Virus record (IMG/VR): IMGVR_UViG_3300009370_002293
Span: 1 to 64,000 of that record
Source of the DNA: a virus
DNA length: 64,000 bases
Direction: 5' to 3' (one strand)
Below the pieces are notes generated by a model. The model saw nothing but the letters and a program-made list of their open reading frames with translations, was not told the origin of the DNA and ran no database searches. Within the stretch, counting starts at the first letter, position 1, and every line of letters begins with the position of its first letter. Position numbers and translations under genes: made by a program. Shown piece after piece: positions 1 through 48,453 of the stretch.

Positions 1-63
1 CTTAAAAAAGTCAACCCCTAAAATGAAAAAAAGTAAAAAAGTTTTTTGGGATTTTGCTTGAAG

Positions 64-96
64 TTGGCACGGAATGGGCAGCCCACCGCGTGCCAA
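64..96. repeat. 33-bp palindromic element copy 1 (TTGGCACG-N4-GGGC-W-GCCS-N4-CGTGCCAA), two convergent sigma54-like GG-N10-GC sites
   Basis: ttggcacggaatgggcagcccaccgcgtgccaa; one of 5 copies. Confidence 0.9.
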
Positions 97-118
97 AAGT
101 CAAGCGGTGACCGTAATG

Positions 119-322
119 TTAACCTGTCACCTTGGCGACGTGTGCCGCCATGCGACGAACTAGTGCCGCCTCATCGGGCTTCAGGAACGGCCCATGGATG
201 GCCTCAAGGGCTTCCCAGCGTTCGCGCTCCTCGTTGCCCCGTTCCCACTCGCGATGCTCGATCTCGGCGGCGATATCGGGGGTGATGGTTTCTTCGATTG
301 TTGGCATCATGTCGTTCATCAT
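119..322 (-). CDS. hypothetical early protein (MMND start)
   Basis: ORF with TTGACC promoter directly upstream, leaderless. Confidence 0.7.
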   Translation of the reverse strand: MMNDMMPTIEETITPDIAAEIEHREWERGNEERERWEALEAIHGPFLKPDEAALVRRMAAHVAKVTG

Positions 323-378
323 GAGAGTATTAAATCAGAAATTCGGCGGGAGGTCAATAGCAGAATCCAAAAAGTTAT

Positions 379-819
379 TCACAGGGAGCAAAGCTCCCCG
401 ATGGTGAACGATGGGGAGGGCTTCAGTGCCTCCTTAACGGCGGCGGTGTGTTCACCCTCAAGCTGCCGCTGATACTCCTCCTCGGCCCTGTCGGCTTCGT
501 CCTGTGCGCGGATGTCTTCGTAGGCCATTCTGGCCTGCCGGTCGAGCCTCACGATTTCGGCCTTTAACTCGGCCTCTGTGGTGGGCATTTCAGGCCAATA
601 AGGCTTGTAGCCGTCAGCCTCCCGAATTGCCTCATGGCGGTCACACGCGGCCAGATACCAATCTAGCTGCAAGGGGGTGTGGATGCCGTACTCGGCCCAA
701 TGGTCGAGGTCTTCAACGAGGGTGGTGGCCCAACGGCCCTCCCCTGCGTTCACCCACGCGAGGGTCTTGGCGTTGCGGTCTGCGAGGTAGGCGGCGAGGT
801 CTTTGCTGTCGTTCATCAT
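379..819 (-). CDS. hypothetical early protein (MMND start)
   Basis: ORF; start moved to 819, 6 nt after TATAGT of a TTGACT promoter. Confidence 0.75.
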   Translation of the reverse strand: MMNDSKDLAAYLADRNAKTLAWVNAGEGRWATTLVEDLDHWAEYGIHTPLQLDWYLAACDRHEAIREADGYKPYWPEMPTTEAELKAEIVRLDRQARMAYEDIRAQDEADRAEEEYQRQLEGEHTAAVKEALKPSPSFTIGELCSL

Positions 820-825
820 GGGAAT

Positions 826-853
826 ACTATACCACATTTTTTAAAAAAGTCAA
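826..853 (-). promoter_or_regulatory. sigma70-type early promoter, leaderless
   Basis: TTGACT-N16-TATAGT with TGTG extended -10 and upstream A/T tracts; near-identical upstream block at 1-96. Confidence 0.75.
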
Positions 854-903
854 CCCCTAAAACGAAAAAAAATAAAAAAAAATTTTGTTTTTTTTACTTG
901 AAG

Positions 904-936
904 TTGGCACGGAATGGGCAGCCGCCCGCGTGCCAA
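904..936. repeat. 33-bp palindromic element copy 2
   Basis: ttggcacggaatgggcagccgcccgcgtgccaa. Confidence 0.9.
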
Positions 937-943
937 AGTAAAG

Positions 944-990
944 AAAAAAAGAGGGCGCGAGGGAAACAACAAAAACCTCGCACCCCCTTT
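944..990 (-). terminator. intrinsic terminator
   Basis: GGGGGTGCGAGG..CCTCGCGCCCTC stem followed by T7 on the minus strand, after ORF 1000-1260. Confidence 0.7.
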
Positions 991-999
991 ACCACCGCG

Positions 1000-1260
1000 T
1001 CAAATACTCTCTGCGTTTGCTGGACGAGGAAGAGGGGGCAAACCCAAACGCATGGTTGCGTTTTCGGATTCTTCCTTGTAAGATTTTACCTCTTCATCAC
1101 TAGCTAGCCGCAGGTAACGCACTGGCGTAGCTTGCAATGATTCTTTATGATGTTGCGTCCATAGCCGCGCCCCATTAATTGACCCAATTGCCCTTTCTAC
1201 TCTCCCAGCCGCCACATTAAAATACAGCGACCCGTTTTGAATTTTTTTGGTGGTTTTCAT
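1000..1260 (-). CDS. hypothetical protein
   Basis: ORF, ATG start at 1260 downstream of TTGACC. Confidence 0.7.
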   Translation of the reverse strand: MKTTKKIQNGSLYFNVAAGRVERAIGSINGARLWTQHHKESLQATPVRYLRLASDEEVKSYKEESENATMRLGLPPLPRPANAESI

Positions 1261-1377
1261 GTCTTTTATGATTGTCTGTTTTTTTTGATTAGGGGTCAAG
1301 TGTTAATTGCCCCGCGTAATGTCTACTACAATCCACATCGCTAATGCTATTAATACTATAGAAACGCAAAGCATGGT

Positions 1378-1557
1378 TTACTGTTCCAAAAAATGTTTCA
1401 AAACAATAAGCTGCCCTTGTTTGATTTTATAAAGGCGATAGGCCTCGGCCTTGGCCTTGGCGTGAGATACGCCAAGTTTCTTTTGGGCTTTGATGTGGTT
1501 GGTAACTTCGGCGGCTTTAACCGCATTCCGAGCTTGGTAGGTTTTATATGTTTTCAT
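1378..1557 (-). CDS. hypothetical basic protein (59 aa)
   Basis: hand translation MKTYKTYQARNAVKAAEV...KHFLEQ. Confidence 0.6.
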   Translation of the reverse strand: MKTYKTYQARNAVKAAEVTNHIKAQKKLGVSHAKAKAEAYRLYKIKQGQLIVLKHFLEQ

Positions 1558-1660
1558 GGTTTTTTTTTAGTTAAAGTTTTGCGTAGGCCGCTACCTCTCA
1601 CGGGCGTTTAATGTTCTTCACCTACGCATTCATTGATTATGATTAATTTTTTAAGATAAG

Positions 1661-1873
1661 TCAATTCCTTTTTGCAACTTTTTGTTGGTAAATAGAAATC
1701 AAATCTTCCAACACCATTTGCCGTGTGCCTGACAAATGAAATTCTTCTTTCGCAAGAGAGTGACAAGAACGGCCTTTCTTTTTCATGCCTAGCATTTCAA
1801 GTTTAATACCTTGGCAAAGCGTTTTAATTCTGAAAAGTTCAATTTCTTCAATAGAGTCGTAAGCAATCATCAT
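1661..1873 (-). CDS. hypothetical protein
   Basis: ORF coupled to the upstream gene (ATGA overlap). Confidence 0.65.
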   Translation of the reverse strand: MMIAYDSIEEIELFRIKTLCQGIKLEMLGMKKKGRSCHSLAKEEFHLSGTRQMVLEDLISIYQQKVAKRN

Positions 1874-2133
1874 AGTTTTTTAATAGTGTTTATCCAGTTC
1901 TCAACGTCACTTTCATTTTGCCAACCTTTAACAGTATCGCCCCACTCAGCAGGGTCAACCATGTGATTGTTAAAGAAGCAACCAATTTCATACATACCCT
2001 TTTCGCTACCGTAAGAAAACTTGTGCTTCACCACGGAAACATCGTAGCCATTAGGTAATTCTACATAAGCCTGAATCGCACCCTCTCCGTGCGTATCAGA
2101 TATGTCGTCAAATTTCAAATCTTCAAATTTCAT
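1870..2133 (-). CDS. hypothetical phage protein
   Basis: ORF in an overlapping operon. Confidence 0.75.
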   Translation of the reverse strand: MKFEDLKFDDISDTHGEGAIQAYVELPNGYDVSVVKHKFSYGSEKGMYEIGCFFNNHMVDPAEWGDTVKGWQNESDVENWINTIKKL

Positions 2134-2297
2134 ACTTCAATGAGCTTCTGTGTTTCAGTCGGGTTTTTTCCTTTTCTTATGAGGTGAACGTCAAAAGTAA
2201 AAGCGTTCAGCATATCGGTTGGGTCTGCGCCTTTCGCGGATGCCATTGCTAACAATGCGAGGCAAATATCTAATTGTTTTGATTCTTTAGTTGTCAT
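2130..2297 (-). CDS. hypothetical protein
   Basis: ORF in operon, start MTTKESK. Confidence 0.55.
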   Translation of the reverse strand: MTTKESKQLDICLALLAMASAKGADPTDMLNAFTFDVHLIRKGKNPTETQKLIEV

Positions 2298-2298
2298 T

Positions 2299-2595
2299 TT
2301 ACATTTCCGAATAAGTTCCGTCATAAGGGTTTGGCTCGTAATACTCTTGAGAGCTTACCTCGTAATCATAACCATAAGTTTCTTCGTAGCTCATTGGCAC
2401 AGCCGTCTCTTGGTCACTTTGCCATATCGCTTGGTCGTCTTTGCTGGAGTAAATCTCACAAAGGGCATTACCTTGAGCTTCGGCGGCTTCGGCCAAAAGG
2501 TCGTTGTATGTTTCGCGAGTGTGAGGGCCGGTAGCGATCAGTTGATCGTCAATCCAAAGGGTGTAGGTTTCTTTTTTTAATGGTTCTGCGTTCAT
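2299..2595 (-). CDS. hypothetical acidic protein
   Basis: ORF with GGAG RBS. Confidence 0.7.
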   Translation of the reverse strand: MNAEPLKKETYTLWIDDQLIATGPHTRETYNDLLAEAAEAQGNALCEIYSSKDDQAIWQSDQETAVPMSYEETYGYDYEVSSQEYYEPNPYDGTYSEM

Positions 2596-2611
2596 GTTTT
2601 GGTTCTCCAGT

Positions 2612-2866
2612 TTAACAAAAGTTGTTGTAGCCTGACTCTCCGAATGTTTGGCCGTTACGATGAATTACTTTTGGTTCATCATCTTTCACAACCTCAAGGC
2701 TGCCAACAGTGTTTCCGTTTATGTCTGCGATGCCAATAAACGTGCCAAGGTTCGGGCCGTTTATGTATTCGATGTCGTCCGCTAGGTTGCGAAAGATTCT
2801 TGCTAACTCAAGCGGGTTTTGCTCGAACGCATCGTTGTTCATTTTGATTTCTAGCTTTGCTTTCAT
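2612..2866 (-). CDS. hypothetical protein
   Basis: ATG 7 nt after a TTGACA..TATAAT promoter. Confidence 0.7.
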   Translation of the reverse strand: MKAKLEIKMNNDAFEQNPLELARIFRNLADDIEYINGPNLGTFIGIADINGNTVGSLEVVKDDEPKVIHRNGQTFGESGYNNFC

Positions 2867-2904
2867 GGCGTTGATTATATCAGATTGGTTAAAGTTGTCA
2901 AGGT

Positions 2905-3156
2905 TTAATATCCTTCGTAACCGTCGAAATGTGAGCATCCCTGCCAATCGTCAGTGTTTTCGTAAATAAAATCTTCAGCGCAAGCCTCTACCATGTTTTT
3001 GTAGTCGGCGGGATGGTTGGCAATGTCCGCGTCCCAATAATCAGCGAAACGAAAATCGGGCAAATCGTGAATGCTAAAGCCTAGCTGGGACTCGACAGTA
3101 AGGTTTACGTCATTAAGAAATGTGCTGTAGGTTGCTTTCTTCGTGTCGTTCATCAT
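2905..3156 (-). CDS. hypothetical early protein (MMND start)
   Basis: ORF with own TTGACA promoter. Confidence 0.7.
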   Translation of the reverse strand: MMNDTKKATYSTFLNDVNLTVESQLGFSIHDLPDFRFADYWDADIANHPADYKNMVEACAEDFIYENTDDWQGCSHFDGYEGY

Positions 3157-3194
3157 GTGTTTATAGTCTCAAAAATTCGGATTGTTGTCAATGA

Positions 3195-3473
3195 TTAGTT
3201 TGGATTGATTTCACGGTCATCCACAAAGCTATTCCAGAAAGGCAAACGGGCGAGCGTCTCCGTGCCTTGTTCGGTTACTTTGACCAGTGATAAACCGAGA
3301 CGTTGACGACGGTGTGCGTTCATGCCATGATTGATGTCCTCGATGGGGTAAGGGTGAAAGGTGTGGTCTGCGTATGTAAACCGTGCGTGAGTTGCCCCTG
3401 CTGCCACGGCGTCAGCGTACTGCTTCCAATTGTCTGGCGTAAGTTCTTTAAGTAGGTTCTTCATGTCGTTCAT
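3195..3473 (-). CDS. hypothetical early protein (MND start)
   Basis: ORF with TTGACT..TATAGT promoter. Confidence 0.7.
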   Translation of the reverse strand: MNDMKNLLKELTPDNWKQYADAVAAGATHARFTYADHTFHPYPIEDINHGMNAHRRQRLGLSLVKVTEQGTETLARLPFWNSFVDDREINPN

Positions 3474-3560
3474 CTTGGTAATACTATAACAGATTTCTTA
3501 AAAAAGTCAAGGGGTAAAATGCATTTTTTTGAAAAATTTTTTTGTGAATCTTGTTGTGTT

Positions 3561-3593
3561 TTGGCACGGGATGGGCTGCCCGCCGCGTGCCAA
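3561..3593. repeat. 33-bp palindromic element copy 3
   Basis: ttggcacgggatgggctgcccgccgcgtgccaa. Confidence 0.9.
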
Positions 3594-3611
3594 ATATACA
3601 ATTAAAATAGT

Positions 3612-3839
3612 TTAATAATTATCAAAGGTGAATGTTTTGCACTCGTCAAAAGAATAAATCTCCCGAACGATTCCCTGATAATTAATTACCTTGAAAACAT
3701 AGAAGGTTGCACCGCCACGCTGGTGGTATAACGGCGCGGTAAAATTATGACGAGCGATAATGGAATGCAATACGCCATCAATCGTCATAAACTCGCCATC
3801 GTGAAGTTCAACCGTGGGTTTGTTTTTTATGTTTTTCAT
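3612..3839 (-). CDS. hypothetical protein
   Basis: ORF. Confidence 0.6.
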   Translation of the reverse strand: MKNIKNKPTVELHDGEFMTIDGVLHSIIARHNFTAPLYHQRGGATFYVFKVINYQGIVREIYSFDECKTFTFDNY

Positions 3840-3982
3840 TTGATTAAATAATTCCCCCTTCACCCTACCTCTTTAGTTTTACTCATCACGCTGTCTTGCT
3901 CATGGCGTGTAACCATCTCATTCCGCTCAAGCGTAGGTTTTTAAACTTAAAGGTTTTACCTTTCGGGTGAAGGGGGTTAGCC

Positions 3983-4864
3983 CTACTCTGTTACAGTAAT
4001 TTGAACATCCTTCGGCTCTTCCACAAACGTGGTAAAAGCCTTTGGGTCTTGCGTCACCTTGTACAAACGCCGAGTCACTTGCGTAGTTGCACGATTCGCC
4101 AACTCAAAACGATCACCTTGCACCTCGTGGGTTAAAAATTGGGTGCTGGCATTCAAAAGGTTGTAAATGTTTCTTTCGTGATCGTTTTCATGGGTTGGGT
4201 TGTTCCAAATTTTAGAGATACCCTCCCGATGCACTTCAGAAATAACATTTTTCTTTACAAGATTGTGAAGAATGTAAAGCCCTTGCTCTTGGGTGATTTC
4301 CTTTTCGGCCATTTGGCTATATATGTTATTAGGATTTGCAAAAGCCCGAAACGATTCCACCGCTTTCATCATTGCATCTTGAATGAAATCCAAATTTAAT
4401 TTGTTGGAATGTTTTTTGGTGAATGCGAAATCTTGTTCGGTTCCCACCATTCCGTTGGTGCAAAGCAGACGCAAAATGCCGCCCACCGTGGAAATTTTGG
4501 TAGACCGATCAAATGAATTGTTCACGTCTAAACGCAAGCCCATTTCATCGCCCACCTTGGGAAGTTTAATCGTCTCATCCTTGAACGTGTAACGTCCATA
4601 GACACGCGCACCACCACGAGCAACAATAATCTCCTCATCATAATCACCCAAGTCATTCAAGCCCTTCAAAGCTTCCCGAACGGTATCAAACAACTCCGCG
4701 TTGTTAACGATGCCATAATCCTTGGTGACTGGTGAAAGCACCGCCCCAGTGTCTAATCGACGGGTGCATTTCAAACCGCTTTTTTTGCCGTCAGCGGTAA
4801 ACAGGTCTTCCATGACAACGGTGTAATCATAATCAGAGGAGGTCGGTTGTGTAGTTCTAGCCAT
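3983..4864 (-). CDS. DUF932-family phage/plasmid protein
   Basis: Y.IVNN.ELF, NSFDRS, RLLCTNGM and K.H motifs. Confidence 0.8.
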   Translation of the reverse strand: MARTTQPTSSDYDYTVVMEDLFTADGKKSGLKCTRRLDTGAVLSPVTKDYGIVNNAELFDTVREALKGLNDLGDYDEEIIVARGGARVYGRYTFKDETIKLPKVGDEMGLRLDVNNSFDRSTKISTVGGILRLLCTNGMVGTEQDFAFTKKHSNKLNLDFIQDAMMKAVESFRAFANPNNIYSQMAEKEITQEQGLYILHNLVKKNVISEVHREGISKIWNNPTHENDHERNIYNLLNASTQFLTHEVQGDRFELANRATTQVTRRLYKVTQDPKAFTTFVEEPKDVQITVTE

Positions 4865-4932
4865 TTTTTTTCTTTCGGTTTAGTGTTAACTGTTTTTTGA
4901 TTATCGTTTAATTTTTTTATAAAGTCAAGCTT

Positions 4933-5106
4933 TTACCACGTCCATTTGCCATTGATTAACGCTGGGCCTTGAGGTGGTTGGATTTTGTGACCATAAGGTA
5001 ACGCGGCCTTTGCTTGGGTGGTTACGTTTTTGATTGTGTCCTTGTCCTGTTTAATGCTCACCAAAATAGCGGTGAGAGGTTTTTCGGATTGTTTTTTGTT
5101 TTTCAT
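4933..5106 (-). CDS. hypothetical protein
   Basis: ORF. Confidence 0.5.
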   Translation of the reverse strand: MKNKKQSEKPLTAILVSIKQDKDTIKNVTTQAKAALPYGHKIQPPQGPALINGKWTW

Positions 5107-5113
5107 AATTTTT

Positions 5114-5272
5114 TTAATACTGGTCAATTTGATCAATGGTTAAGCCTAGATGCAAGCCATCTTCGTCGATGCACCAAAAGGTTTCTCCGTCAATTTCGTC
5201 AACGATTAACAGACTGAATCCGTAACGGACTTCGTCTCCAACTTTGATTTGTTTTTCTTTCATTTTCATCAT
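5114..5272 (-). CDS. hypothetical protein (52 aa)
   Basis: hand translation MMKMKEKQIKVGDEVRYG...; ATG 6 nt after TATACT. Confidence 0.65.
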   Translation of the reverse strand: MMKMKEKQIKVGDEVRYGFSLLIVDEIDGETFWCIDEDGLHLGLTIDQIDQY

Positions 5273-5292
5273 GCGATTAGTATATCACAAGG

Positions 5293-5315
5293 GGTAGGAC
5301 ATCCGCAGTCCTACC
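5293..5315 (-). promoter_or_regulatory. palindromic operator over -35, copy 1
   Basis: GGTAGGAC-TGCGGAT-GTCCTACC, then TG-N-TATACT-N6-ATG. Confidence 0.75.
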
Positions 5316-5433
5316 AATTTTTTTTCTGATGTTTTTCTTTGCGACGAAAAGAGCCCTTGCCCTTTTTGGTTTTATGCTGACGCACCGCGCTCCCCATAAA
5401 TCCCTGCTTGTTCACTCGTGTTTTAATTTTCAT
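5311..5433 (-). CDS. ArfA-like small basic protein (40 aa)
   Basis: MKIKTRVNKQGFMGSAVRQHKTKKGKGSFRRKEKHQKKNW; KKGKGS-aromatic-xRKxKH motif as in ArfA. Confidence 0.6.
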   Translation of the reverse strand: MKIKTRVNKQGFMGSAVRQHKTKKGKGSFRRKEKHQKKNW

Positions 5434-5517
5434 GAGGTGAGTTTCTCATAATTTCCAAAAAAAAGCAATCACAAAATAATGTTTTTTTTCACAGCTGTGA
5501 ATGTTTTTTGTTTGACA

Positions 5518-5550
5518 TTGGCACGCGGGGGGCTGCCCGATCCGTGCCAA
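5518..5550. repeat. 33-bp palindromic element copy 4 (inverted relative to the others)
   Basis: ttggcacgcggggggctgcccgatccgtgccaa. Confidence 0.9.
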
Positions 5551-5574
5551 CTATACAAATAAAATATTTTTTTA

Positions 5575-6000
5575 TTACTTTTTATATAGTTCTCCAGTGG
5601 TGCTAGGTTCGGGTAGAAAAGCCCACACCCCATCCCTCCGAATCTCAATGAACCACGCTTCTGTTACGGAAACCGATTCATTGTTTACCAAAACAAAAGT
5701 CTTATGTTTATAAGGATTATAAGTAATTCTCTGCCACTCGTGGGATTCGATGCCTGTGCTGTAATCATCAATCAGAGACTCCCGCATTCTCATGCCTTGA
5801 ATGTAAGCGTGAACATTTTTCCGCATTTCATCACGCACACGCTGATTACCTTTCGGGCCAACCCTCAAGACAGGACGAGACAATGCGATTTCTGTGACGT
5901 GATCCACAACGATACCTTTTTCATCACGAACACTGTAAACCGCCGTGCCTTCTTTGGTGGTCTTGTGTAAGTTGCGATATACTTGGACTTGATTTTTCAT
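5575..6000 (-). CDS. conserved hypothetical phage protein
   Basis: VYRNLHK..RKNVHAY..ITYNPYK pattern. Confidence 0.75.
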   Translation of the reverse strand: MKNQVQVYRNLHKTTKEGTAVYSVRDEKGIVVDHVTEIALSRPVLRVGPKGNQRVRDEMRKNVHAYIQGMRMRESLIDDYSTGIESHEWQRITYNPYKHKTFVLVNNESVSVTEAWFIEIRRDGVWAFLPEPSTTGELYKK

Positions 6001-6002
6001 TT

Positions 6003-6314
6003 TTAGCGATATTGGCAAACCTGTTTGAAAACGGGCTGACTGCGATGCCCTTCAAAATAAGCGGGACTCATGCAAGTGACTTCCTCGCGATGAGTTTCCA
6101 CGAATGTCGCGCCAATGGTGTAGCCTGTCCACGCACGACTAGTTTGTTGACCGCCGATTTTTTTAACGGCGTCCGCTTGCGCGATGATAAATTCAACCGT
6201 GCCAACTTCGGCGGCTGTACTAAAGTGAGCGCAAACTTTTTCGGTGGCGTAATGCTTTGCGGTGGGTTTAATCTCCATTGCATGGAGTTCGGTGTAGTAG
6301 TGTTTTTTTTCCAT
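6003..6314 (-). CDS. hypothetical protein
   Basis: ORF in operon. Confidence 0.65.
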   Translation of the reverse strand: MEKKHYYTELHAMEIKPTAKHYATEKVCAHFSTAAEVGTVEFIIAQADAVKKIGGQQTSRAWTGYTIGATFVETHREEVTCMSPAYFEGHRSQPVFKQVCQYR

Positions 6315-6450
6315 AATCTTTTAGTTAGTAAGTGCTAGAGCGATGATAGCGACTAGCAAAAGAGTTGCGGTGTAGGTTACGCTTACAATAGCAAGCACAG
6401 TGTCATAGTTTAGTTTTTTGTTCATAATCTTAATGTTCTCCTGATCTTCT

Positions 6451-6708
6451 TTAATTATCATAATGAAATTGTATCATACAGGGTGGGACATCCGCAGTCC
6501 CACCAAAATCTTTTTCAATTTTTTCGTGTAACATCCAAACAGGGTGAATGGTAACAATTTTGGGAAGGTCATCCCAACGAACGGCCAATCGTCCGTTCAC
6601 GTGCATTCGCGGGGTATCCAATAACCATGCCACCGTGCCAACCTTTGAGGGGTTGCGATAGTGATAAACACGTTGGCCAATGTGTGCCTTGTTCATTTTG
6701 ATCTTCAT
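6451..6708 (-). CDS. hypothetical protein
   Basis: ATG 6 nt after TATAAT. Confidence 0.65.
   Translation of the reverse strand: MKIKMNKAHIGQRVYHYRNPSKVGTVAWLLDTPRMHVNGRLAVRWDDLPKIVTIHPVWMLHEKIEKDFGGTADVPPCMIQFHYDN
6482..6504 (-). promoter_or_regulatory. palindromic operator over -35, copy 2
   Basis: GGTGGGAC-TGCGGAT-GTCCCACC, then TG-N-TACAAT-N6-ATG. Confidence 0.75.
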
Positions 6709-6727
6709 GCGTCTATTATATCAGGCG

Positions 6728-6750
6728 GGTGAGACATCCGCTGTCCTACC
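6728..6750 (-). promoter_or_regulatory. palindromic operator over -35, copy 3
   Basis: GGTAGGAC-AGCGGAT-GTCTCACC, then TG-N-TATAAT-N6-ATG. Confidence 0.75.
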
Positions 6751-6977
6751 TAAAACTTTTCTACAAAAAATTCTTCGCCCACACACTCAAGGTGGAATTC
6801 GTGTTTTGGTAACCAGCCAAGCCAACCGTCAGAGGCACGCAGCAACCATGTTCTAGCTCCATCAATAGCCTCTTCTACCATAAAGCCATTTGCACCATGC
6901 TCGCGGATACGGTTCTTAGTGCGCTGCGTAGCTTTAGCGTTGGGGCTGATTAGAATCCTCTGTCCTTTAATCTTCAT
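6750..6977 (-). CDS. hypothetical protein
   Basis: start MKIKGQR, 6 nt after TACCAT. Confidence 0.65.
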   Translation of the reverse strand: MKIKGQRILISPNAKATQRTKNRIREHGANGFMVEEAIDGARTWLLRASDGWLGWLPKHEFHLECVGEEFFVEKF

Positions 6978-6997
6978 GCGTACATGGTAACATAGAG

Positions 6998-7020
6998 CGT
7001 GGGACATCCGCAGTCCTACC
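6998..7020 (-). promoter_or_regulatory. palindromic operator over -35, copy 4
   Basis: GGTAGGAC-TGCGGAT-GTCCCACG, then TG-N-TACCAT-N6-ATG. Confidence 0.75.
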
Positions 7021-7054
7021 AAAAAAAACTTTTTGGCCCTTGAGGGGTTGACTT

Positions 7055-7087
7055 TTGGCACGGGATGGGCTGCCCGCCGCGTGCCAA
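7055..7087. repeat. 33-bp palindromic element copy 5
   Basis: identical to copy 3. Confidence 0.9.
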
Positions 7088-10077: not shown

Positions 10078-11130
10078 TTAATTCAATTTTGTAGCAGCAG
10101 TTGGCACATCACATGGTTTAGGTAAAACAATCCTTATTGGTGTAGGTTTACTCAATGCCGCCGAGGTCGCCGCAAGGTCGCACAAATATGCTTCTATATT
10201 TTTTAAATACTCTTGGCCTTTTTTAGTTAATGCTCGACCCCCACGACCAATTTCCATAAGGCTATGTTTTTGCAAATACATTTCAAAATCTTTTTGCAAG
10301 CACGACCGTGTAAGACCTGTCTTTGAAGCAAGAAACGTAAGGCTACATTCCTTCTTCTCCTCAAGCAGACGAAGAACTTGCAACTCGATACGACTCAAGC
10401 CCAAGGGTAAAATCCCTAATGCGTGAGAGAGATGCTTCCAATCGTTTTTATTAAAATGATTTTTATTTTTAGATTTAAGAAAAGAAGAAATATGCGTACT
10501 CATTTTCTGTGCCTGACGCGCATTACCCCGAAGCACCGTTGCGATCTCTGGCAGCAGACCATCTTCAAATGTCTTGTCTTGATTTAAACGCTGAACAATT
10601 TCGCCCAACTCATCATACGAATACTCCTCCAGATCAACTCTTTCACACCTGTCCATTAACGCATGAAAAATATCCTGCGCTTCTGTCGTAGCAAACATGA
10701 AAGATTGCCTACTAAAATCAAAATCAATTACATACTCATCATACGAAAAGGTAGTACGATTATGCTCATTAGGATTTAACATAGTCAGCAACGCCATAGT
10801 TACATCCTTGGGTAATTCTGATGCCTCGTCCAAAAGCACGGTACATTCCTGTTGATGCACATGAGGAATAAGAATCTGATTAACAAATTGTTTTATATTC
10901 TTAATTGTTGAGCAATTAATCTCAAGAAAAGGTTTGGCCTTCCCCTTGCCCTTGAGATTCATTTTACTCCCCATCGCCTTGGCGAGAGTAGTTTTGCCGC
11001 ATCCCTTGGGCGCAACAAACATAAGGTGAGGCATCACATTGGTAGCGTGATAATTTTTTAAGTAAAAAGACAAACGCCGTTTGGCAACATCTTGCCCAAC
11101 AATTTTTGGAAACAGTTCAGTAGTAGTCAT
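10078..11130 (-). CDS. ruvB: RuvB-like Holliday junction branch-migration AAA+ ATPase
   Basis: IVGQD, Walker A PKGCGKTT, Walker B LLDEA, FATT, LMDR, RGNAR, C-terminal E.YL...L..GR winged helix. Confidence 0.75.
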   Translation of the reverse strand: MTTTELFPKIVGQDVAKRRLSFYLKNYHATNVMPHLMFVAPKGCGKTTLAKAMGSKMNLKGKGKAKPFLEINCSTIKNIKQFVNQILIPHVHQQECTVLLDEASELPKDVTMALLTMLNPNEHNRTTFSYDEYVIDFDFSRQSFMFATTEAQDIFHALMDRCERVDLEEYSYDELGEIVQRLNQDKTFEDGLLPEIATVLRGNARQAQKMSTHISSFLKSKNKNHFNKNDWKHLSHALGILPLGLSRIELQVLRLLEEKKECSLTFLASKTGLTRSCLQKDFEMYLQKHSLMEIGRGGRALTKKGQEYLKNIEAYLCDLAATSAALSKPTPIRIVLPKPCDVPTAATKLN

Positions 11131-48050: not shown

Positions 48051-48422
48051 TTACAAGATTTTTATTTTAACTGGCTTTACTTTTTCAAGTTTTTCTAATT
48101 TGACCTTAAGCATTCCGTCCACATAAGTAGCTTTCACTTTGGAAGGGTCTACATCTTCTGGCATATTAAATGAATATACGTTTTCATCACCCTCTTTCTT
48201 TATGGTAACGTAAACGCCCCCATCCCTTAATGTAACCTCTATGTCCTTTTTTCTCACCCCTGCTAATTCGATGTGGTAATCGTACGCACTTTCAGACTCA
48301 TCAAGTTTAACCTTATTATAAGTGCGCGCTGCCCTCCAGCCATCCCAAATCAACTCGTCAATATCACTAAAGGCTTTGTCATAAATTGGGAACTCTTTAA
48401 ATAATCTATTTGCTAATATCAT
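48051..48422 (-). CDS. small heat shock protein (Hsp20)
   Basis: ELAGV.K.DI.V, VD..KVKATYVDGML.V. Confidence 0.9.
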   Translation of the reverse strand: MILANRLFKEFPIYDKAFSDIDELIWDGWRAARTYNKVKLDESESAYDYHIELAGVRKKDIEVTLRDGGVYVTIKKEGDENVYSFNMPEDVDPSKVKATYVDGMLKVKLEKLEKVKPVKIKIL

Positions 48423-48436
48423 AACAAATACTAAAA

Positions 48437-48453
48437 AGCAAATAACATGCCAA
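48437..48453 (-). promoter_or_regulatory. canonical sigma54 (-24/-12) promoter for Hsp20
   Basis: TTGGCATGTTATTTGCT ending 15 nt upstream of the ATG. Confidence 0.75.

Follow-up and report, generated by a model that had tools for sequence, protein, structure and literature searches.

We analysed a window of 64,000 nucleotides, comprising bases 1-64000 of the 99.8-kb linear virus record IMGVR_UViG_3300009370_002293 (estimated to be 64% complete), and focused on a 33-bp palindromic DNA element that recurs among its early genes. These genes, in the first 8 kb of the window, are small and read from the minus strand. Genes for rIIA, a DNA ligase and NrdA are present in the phage, and its relative G001, a genome of 162 kb and 96% completeness, carries a DnaE-like polymerase and a DnaB-like helicase. 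For rIIA and the DnaE-like polymerase the protein matches were of just 27-35%. A search for DNA-level similarity to cultured phages found none, and an Rfam search returned no known RNA family for the element, the one weak microRNA match lying elsewhere. These empty searches, together with the gene content, indicated a large uncultured phage without close cultured relatives. A related phage fragment, L062 (contig CAZYHH010000017.1, 20.9 kb), is binned in a Pseudomonadales metagenome-assembled genome and shares ~70% nucleotide identity with the window phage in rIIA and in a RuvB-like gene. It contains one copy of the element and one palindrome of a second class of promoter described below. The same metagenome-assembled genome contains rpoN (513 amino acids, 225 bits), which, being tied to the phage by binning, provides a weak host link.

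The element consists of two arms, TTGGCACG and its complement, held 17 nucleotides apart (arm-N17-arm). A first-pass annotation, made from the letters of the window alone, had described five copies of it as double sigma-54-like sites placed at a fixed distance upstream of early promoters. We recovered the same five copies at the same positions as exact matches (Table 1), while 100 shuffles of the window gave no match at all, so that none is expected by chance. All five are confined to the first 7.1 kb of the record, and the remaining 92 kb contained no further copy, even with 5 mismatches allowed. In the window, the elements lie 18-63 nt behind the end of the preceding open reading frame (ORF) and 78-88 nt ahead of the next start codon, and the start-codon distances given earlier for copies 2, 3 and 4 (85, 88 and 85 nt) and for copy 5 (78 nt) were reproduced. 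Scanning the full genome and its relatives, as the first-pass annotation had proposed, thus gave five copies in the record and, from an exact-arm scan of IMG/VR that returned 45 loci, the true element in those from ~20 related contigs, with at most 8 copies per locus. The 7 copies of G001 are all clustered within 9 kb, from 6.3 to 15.1 kb. A scan of bacterial and archaeal genomes (596 Gb) gave just two matches to the full double form, one a chance match inside a gene and the other in the phage fragment L062. This result indicated that the double element is specific to phages rather than copied from a host operator.

Table 1. Positions of the element copies, the associated promoter features and the hsp20 locus in the window.
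Feature	Position	Strand	Remarks
Element copy 1 (33-bp palindrome, two head-to-head sigma-54-type boxes)	64..96		Exact match; 22 nt past the stop of ORF 119-322
Element copy 2	904..936		50 nt upstream of the -35 box of promoter 853-826
Element copy 3	3561..3593		50 nt upstream of the -35 box of promoter 3510-3483; 18 nt past the stop of ORF 3612-3863
Element copy 4	5518..5550		Centre inverted relative to copies 1, 2, 3 and 5; downstream promoter weakly defined
Element copy 5	7055..7087		Identical to copy 3; upstream of a second-class promoter with palindrome 6996-7020
-35 box TTGACT of the copy 1 promoter	9..14	-	49 nt from the element; -10 box beyond the contig end
Sigma-70-type early promoter of copy 2	826..853	-	TTGACT, TG-extended TATAGT; 10/12 matches, TG present
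Sigma-70-type early promoter of copy 3	3483..3510	-	TTGACT, TG-extended TATAGT
A/T-tract spacer from copy 2 to the -35 box	854..903	-	80% A/T; equivalents at 15-63 and 3511-3560
Second-class promoter palindrome (8-bp arms, 7-nt centre) at the -35 position, downstream of copy 5	6996..7020	-	TG-extended -10 box follows
Separate intrinsic terminator (G+C stem, then T run) just before copy 2	941..987	-	Read from sequence
Single sigma-54-type box TTGGCATG-N4-TTGCT, A/T-rich DNA downstream	48437..48453	-	Directly precedes hsp20
Phage small heat-shock gene, Hsp20 family	48051..48422	-	Pfam PF00011, E = 5e-12

The pattern of conservation within the element was read from an alignment of 48 oriented copies (alignment A1). 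Columns T2-A6, G15, C16, G18 and C19 are invariant, as is the mirrored arm, and the centre is always A or T (W). Variation occurs at arm positions 1, 7 (C to T) and 8, and the four bases that follow each arm are variable. Each strand therefore spells TGGCA(C/T)G, four free bases, two semi-free bases, GC, and then A/T. The claim that each strand carries GG-N10-GC with the two GC dinucleotides at the centre was borne out on both strands of all five window copies and of 48 of the 48 aligned copies; the GC dinucleotides flank the central W, and the two boxes share that one base. An arm spacing of 17 was found in 144 of 148 cases, and this is the spacing required if two GG-N10-GC boxes are to share one central base. 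The GGGC/GCCC inner palindrome that had been described as a further feature is not kept in the relatives, where only GC-W-GC persists. Instead, the element centre is asymmetric, one inner hexamer being conserved as CCGCCC and the other being variable.

This bipartite pattern closely resembles the promoter boxes recognised by sigma-54 (RpoN), and the invariant columns of the alignment fall exclusively at positions of the sigma-54 consensus. The published consensus, TGGCACG-N4-TTGCW (PMC4482717), is matched by the element at 7/7 positions of TGGCACG and at the GC and W, while the TT of the -12 box is missing in the window. In the relatives the gene-facing box often reads GTGCA or TTGCA. RpoN -24/-12 promoters and the element share TGGCA(C/T)G, four variable bases, GC followed by A/T, and the GG-N10-GC spacing, and the variants that the element tolerates (e.g. 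TGGCAT) are common natural variants of sigma-54 sites. Unlike RpoN promoters, the element fuses two boxes head to head round one base, has G+C-rich DNA downstream of each box and often lacks the TT of -12; it has no activator site and is positioned upstream of sigma-70 promoters in phage DNA.

If the palindrome were conserved as a hairpin, then changes in one arm should be matched in the other and the inner bases should pair. Neither was seen in A1. The six bases on each side of the centre, between arm and central GC, are variable and lack complementarity; 40-64% of sequences leave the inner pairs unpaired, and in 497-500 of 500 shuffles the shuffled control showed more pairing and covariation than the alignment. 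Where an arm does vary (C to T at position 7, changes at 8 and 1), which is seldom, the opposite arm never has a compensating change. The first-pass annotation had reasoned that homologues keeping their pairing and losing the GG-N10-GC spacing would favour a hairpin; the homologues do the opposite, keeping the spacing and losing the pairing. In many relatives, moreover, the element comes directly after a canonical terminator or a transfer RNA (tRNA) 3' end. Taken together, the preceding terminators and tRNA ends and the uncompensated arm changes indicated that the element lies mostly in untranscribed DNA and that its arms are read independently.

The position of the element relative to the early promoters follows the helical repeat of DNA. 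Copies 1-3 are separated from a TTGACT -35 box by 49-50 nt of 72-80% A/T. A spacing of 49-50 nt with intervening A/T tracts had been reported for copies 1-4, and it holds for copies 1-3; the -35 box of copy 4 is merely a weak TTGCTT or TTGTGA candidate, which leaves that spacing uncertain. Second-class promoters, of which further palindromes lie at 5293-5315, 6482-6504 and 6728-6750 and also in G001 and L062, hold the same register to the 33-bp element, and this spacing is kept in G001. In the relatives the distance from the element to the -35 box (TTGAC) is not fixed, as had been supposed, but is quantised in 10-bp steps, taking values of 11, 30, 40, 50, 60, 70 and 90 bp, each within 1-3 bp. 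A Rayleigh analysis over 23 clusters of unrelated spacers peaked at a period of 10.0 bp (R = 0.79, p = 5e-7). In the usual promoter numbering the element centres fall near -63, -82, -92, -102, -122 and about -142, so that the single position near -100 first proposed gives way to a phased series from about -63 to -143. The periodic spacing points to a face-specific interaction of the element's ligand with the early-promoter polymerase.

Two observations concern the DNA on either side of these promoters. In relatives with 70- or 90-nt spacers (L033:5360-5400, L033:6104-6140, L008:12243-12290), a palindrome based on TGCATACA lies between the element and the A/T tract, either as an inverted pair with a 3-4-nt centre or as direct repeats, and is probably another operator module. 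In the window, several early genes have common first codons (ATGATGAACGAC or near it, at 808-820, 314-326, 3149-3160 and 3468-3480) directly past the -10 box. These shared codons suggested that the repeated cassette extends into the ORF starts and that the messenger RNAs (mRNAs) are leaderless.

Either orientation of the element relative to the promoter is found, with the spacing unchanged. Judged by the asymmetric centre, four of the five window copies are flipped with respect to the majority orientation in the relatives. Copy 4 had been described as inverted yet correctly spaced, and its inversion was confirmed by the same criterion. A comparison of gene content between elements, also suggested at the outset, revealed that element-bounded cassettes are permuted between relatives: maps of ORF families showed such permutation between G000 and G001 and among L008, L009, L024, L033 and L039. 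One ORF family (f10) directly follows the element in L008, L009, L024 and L033 though the neighbouring genes differ.

This arrangement recalls the promoter-early stem-loop (PeSL) cassettes of T4-type phages (Arbiol 2010, PMC2839356; Comeau 2014, PMC4122927). Like them, the element belongs to an intergenic module of a hyperplastic early region, in which a palindrome, an A/T-rich tract, a near-consensus sigma-70 promoter and a start codon follow one another, and its many copies mark the edges of gene cassettes shuffled among relatives. The stem-loop of a PeSL is a terminator hairpin, different in sequence from one phage group to another, whereas the element has invariant arms. Also unlike a PeSL, it has a non-pairing 17-bp centre and no T run, usually stands behind a separate terminator and is phased with the promoter. 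The layout and the cassette-border location of PeSLs are thus present and an effective terminator stem-loop is absent. The carriers differ as well, since the window phage is not of the T4-type core genome and its relative G001 has the DnaE-like polymerase.

The same type of box is found singly in front of the phage hsp20 gene (Table 1). Protein searches and a strict DNA pattern found a relative of this locus in G001 only, and a looser pattern added L105 and L126. The orthologous box is present in G001 (L059:9623-9639) and in L105/L126, the N4 bases differing between them. The window Hsp20 is 30% identical to its G001 orthologue, and the Hsp20 proteins across the three lineages are 30-52% identical. 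The hsp20 start codon lies 13-16 nt past the GC of the box, so an mRNA started from this box would be nearly leaderless. In E. coli, the small heat-shock gene ibpB is under sigma-54 control (PMC2831329). Conservation of the box in single as well as double form is more readily explained by a reader that is monomeric and bipartite, like sigma-54, than by an obligate dimer.

We propose that the element is a non-initiating docking site for host sigma-54 polymerase that is phase-coupled to the early sigma-70 promoter, and from these sequence comparisons we put the probability of this reading at roughly one half. In the proposed scheme, the 33-bp element would be a DNA-level protein-docking site and would form the upstream module of PeSL-like early-gene cassettes. 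Each strand would offer a full sigma-54 -24/-12 box, and the most likely ligand would be host sigma-54 RNA polymerase or sigma-54 itself. Docking might occur from either side and would proceed without opening of the DNA, because the stretch to be melted is the G+C-rich other box. The site would sit between the terminator of one cassette and the A/T tract and sigma-70 promoter of the next, always facing the same side of the helix as that promoter, and the docked complex would either act on or with the polymerase at the early promoter or hold sigma-54 there. Its effects may be those of a sponge, of an insulator or of promoter coupling. The first-pass claim of a DNA site specific for sigma-54 (or a similar dimer) upstream of early sigma-70 promoters is supported in part by the conservation pattern and loses the fixed distance near -100 that had been attached to it. 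Chromatin immunoprecipitation sequencing in E. coli has shown that sigma-54 holoenzyme binds many sites inactively, and also that such inactive complexes inside genes did not act as roadblocks (PMC4591121). The latter finding weakens the roadblock variant that had been put forward, and we do not favour it.

The only documented use of sigma-54 by a phage that we found in the literature is a promoter of Pseudomonas phage YuA (Ceyssens 2008, confirmed in PMC10914365). YuA is a lytic phage that exploits host sigma-54, and the single hsp20 box may be of that kind. Its promoter is ordinary and single, and the published account describes nothing palindromic, repeated or sigma-70-phased. Our literature search found no palindromic or phased sigma-54 boxes in phages, the sole documented phage sigma-54 promoter being that of YuA (PMC10914365).

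Several points weigh against a sigma-54 ligand. The -12 boxes in the window read GGGCW or CGGCT, without both T of TTGCW, and the CCGCCC hexamer is far more conserved than sigma-54 recognition would need. Strong early promoters without an element lie at 2901-2874, 4928-4900 and 1664-1636, so early transcription as such does not depend on it. One element could not accommodate two holoenzymes at once, and a palindrome is more naturally the site of a dimer. Class I activators, which are dimeric, classically bind in helical phase at about -63, -82, -92 and -102. No precedent for a palindromic double sigma-54 site was found in the literature, and the rpoN link comes from a single binned contig.

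By the prevailing view, the early genes of phages are transcribed by sigma-70 polymerase. If our reading holds, the element would point to an undescribed phage means of docking or trapping host sigma-54 polymerase: sigma-54, so far tied to one cultured phage promoter, would here be met by a symmetric site that is phased throughout a whole group of uncultured phages. If sigma-54 binds, these phages would be exploiting the ability of this form of polymerase to sit on DNA without transcribing, and the element would provide a small, naturally occurring DNA module with which sigma-54 could be docked or titrated. A bolder extension, tentative and to our minds possible rather than likely, is that of a cis-encoded sigma-factor trap, in which the double boxes would capture host sigma-54, with or without core, in register with the early promoters, and so either disarm the sigma-54-dependent responses of the host or tie the captured complex physically to early transcription. 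Were this so, the phage would possess a host-takeover device built of DNA, not protein. The position of the element at the borders of shuffled early cassettes also extends the PeSL idea past T4-type phages.

The strongest rival explanation, unlikely in our estimate, is that the element is the operator of a symmetric dimeric regulator (encoded by the phage, carried in the virion or supplied by the host) that makes class I-type contact with the polymerase, the resemblance to sigma-54 boxes being coincidental. Class I sites of CRP are centred at about -61.5, -82.5 and -92.5, and the inverted repeat bound by p4 of phi29 lies near -82. In these systems, as here, a symmetric site is placed on one helical face upstream of the polymerase and is effective at one-turn steps. 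A dimer would account for two perfectly conserved, palindromic arms at strict spacing, for their independence of orientation and for the one inner hexamer that is conserved past what sigma-54 needs, and it explains the palindromy and the 10-bp phasing, with centres near -63, -82, -92 and -102, more naturally than does a sigma-54 docking site. The element departs from the class I and p4 sites in that no cognate dimer was found, its half-site is bipartite like that of sigma-54, and its reach extends to about -143. Its conserved positions match those of sigma-54 one for one, the central W included, the single non-palindromic hsp20 box would be unreadable by an obligate dimer, and strong consensus early promoters need no activator at infection. 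As to the regulator itself, Pfam detected no DNA-binding domain in 20 early ORFs of the window or in 10 ORF families widely shared near elements, a search limited by the lack of a known fold in most of the small ORFs. No one family of ORFs near the elements recurs in all element-bearing contigs. Nor does the phage encode a sigma-54 DNA-binding domain.

It is improbable that the gene-direction box is a working sigma-54 promoter, fired by a host enhancer-binding protein as a conditional second route, with the reverse box as a by-product. The gene-facing box does read TGCA or TGCT with T at -14 in about half of the cases among the relatives (30 of 59), and YuA offers a precedent. A productive sigma-54 promoter has a meltable region from -10 to +1, an activator and a site for it. 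In the element the stretch to be melted is nearly pure G+C, being the other box, whereas the DNA downstream of the hsp20 box is rich in A/T. The forward and reverse arms are equally invariant, the prevailing orientation in the window is the flipped one (four of five copies), and no conserved upstream activator site accompanies the element. The phage itself has no enhancer-binding protein. As a candidate for a phage-encoded activator, the sole PF00158 signal was a Walker-A match in a RuvB-like AAA+ protein (window 10078-11130) with a C-terminal winged helix, and this protein was rejected as an enhancer-binding protein since it has no GAFTGA motif.

A bare PeSL-type stem-loop, that is an RNA or single-stranded DNA hairpin that ends transcripts or serves cassette crossover without any protein-specific reading, has comparably little likelihood. 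In its favour are the PeSL layout of palindrome, A/T-rich tract, -35/-10 boxes and start codon (PMC4122927), the permuted cassettes, a predicted folding energy of the 33-mer of -17 to -20 kcal/mol, which is better than that of shuffles, and the existence of short-centred variants and of copies adjoining tRNA genes that are described below. Despite this folding, a conserved hairpin is ruled out by the pair counts in A1. Conservation within the 33 bp is position-specific, whereas homogenisation of repeats would be expected to leave it uniform, and the arms are identical across contigs with differing flanks. A rho-independent terminator or terminating stem-loop of the PeSL type was likewise rejected, there being no covariation and separate terminators preceding many copies; a terminator scan did not call the elements, and no T run follows them, the gene-strand flanks being CTTC, AAAG or AACA and the opposite strand A-rich. 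The earlier alternative of a bulged single-stranded DNA hairpin for cassette recombination fails for want of an integrase and of structural conservation, although the cassette shuffling itself is real. An integron attC-like site was dismissed on similar grounds, as sequence and not structure is conserved, the length is fixed at 33 bp and no cognate recombinase was found, with no match to tyrosine recombinase (PF00589) in G000 or in the 96%-complete G001 and with a match in G002 set aside because G002 is an unrelated chance match of the arms.

Two minor features were seen in the relatives. At L033:118-238, L022:6746-6853, L022:9725-9845 and L008:8233-8353, the element begins 2-3 nt past the 3' end of a tRNA-Leu(TAA) or tRNA-Cys gene, with no terminator between. 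Three rare short variants (L008:5289-5313, L009:11215-11238 and L032:3174-3197) have the same arms round a 6-7-nt centre and form true hairpins, and one of them sits just after a tRNA-Cys gene, beside a full element.

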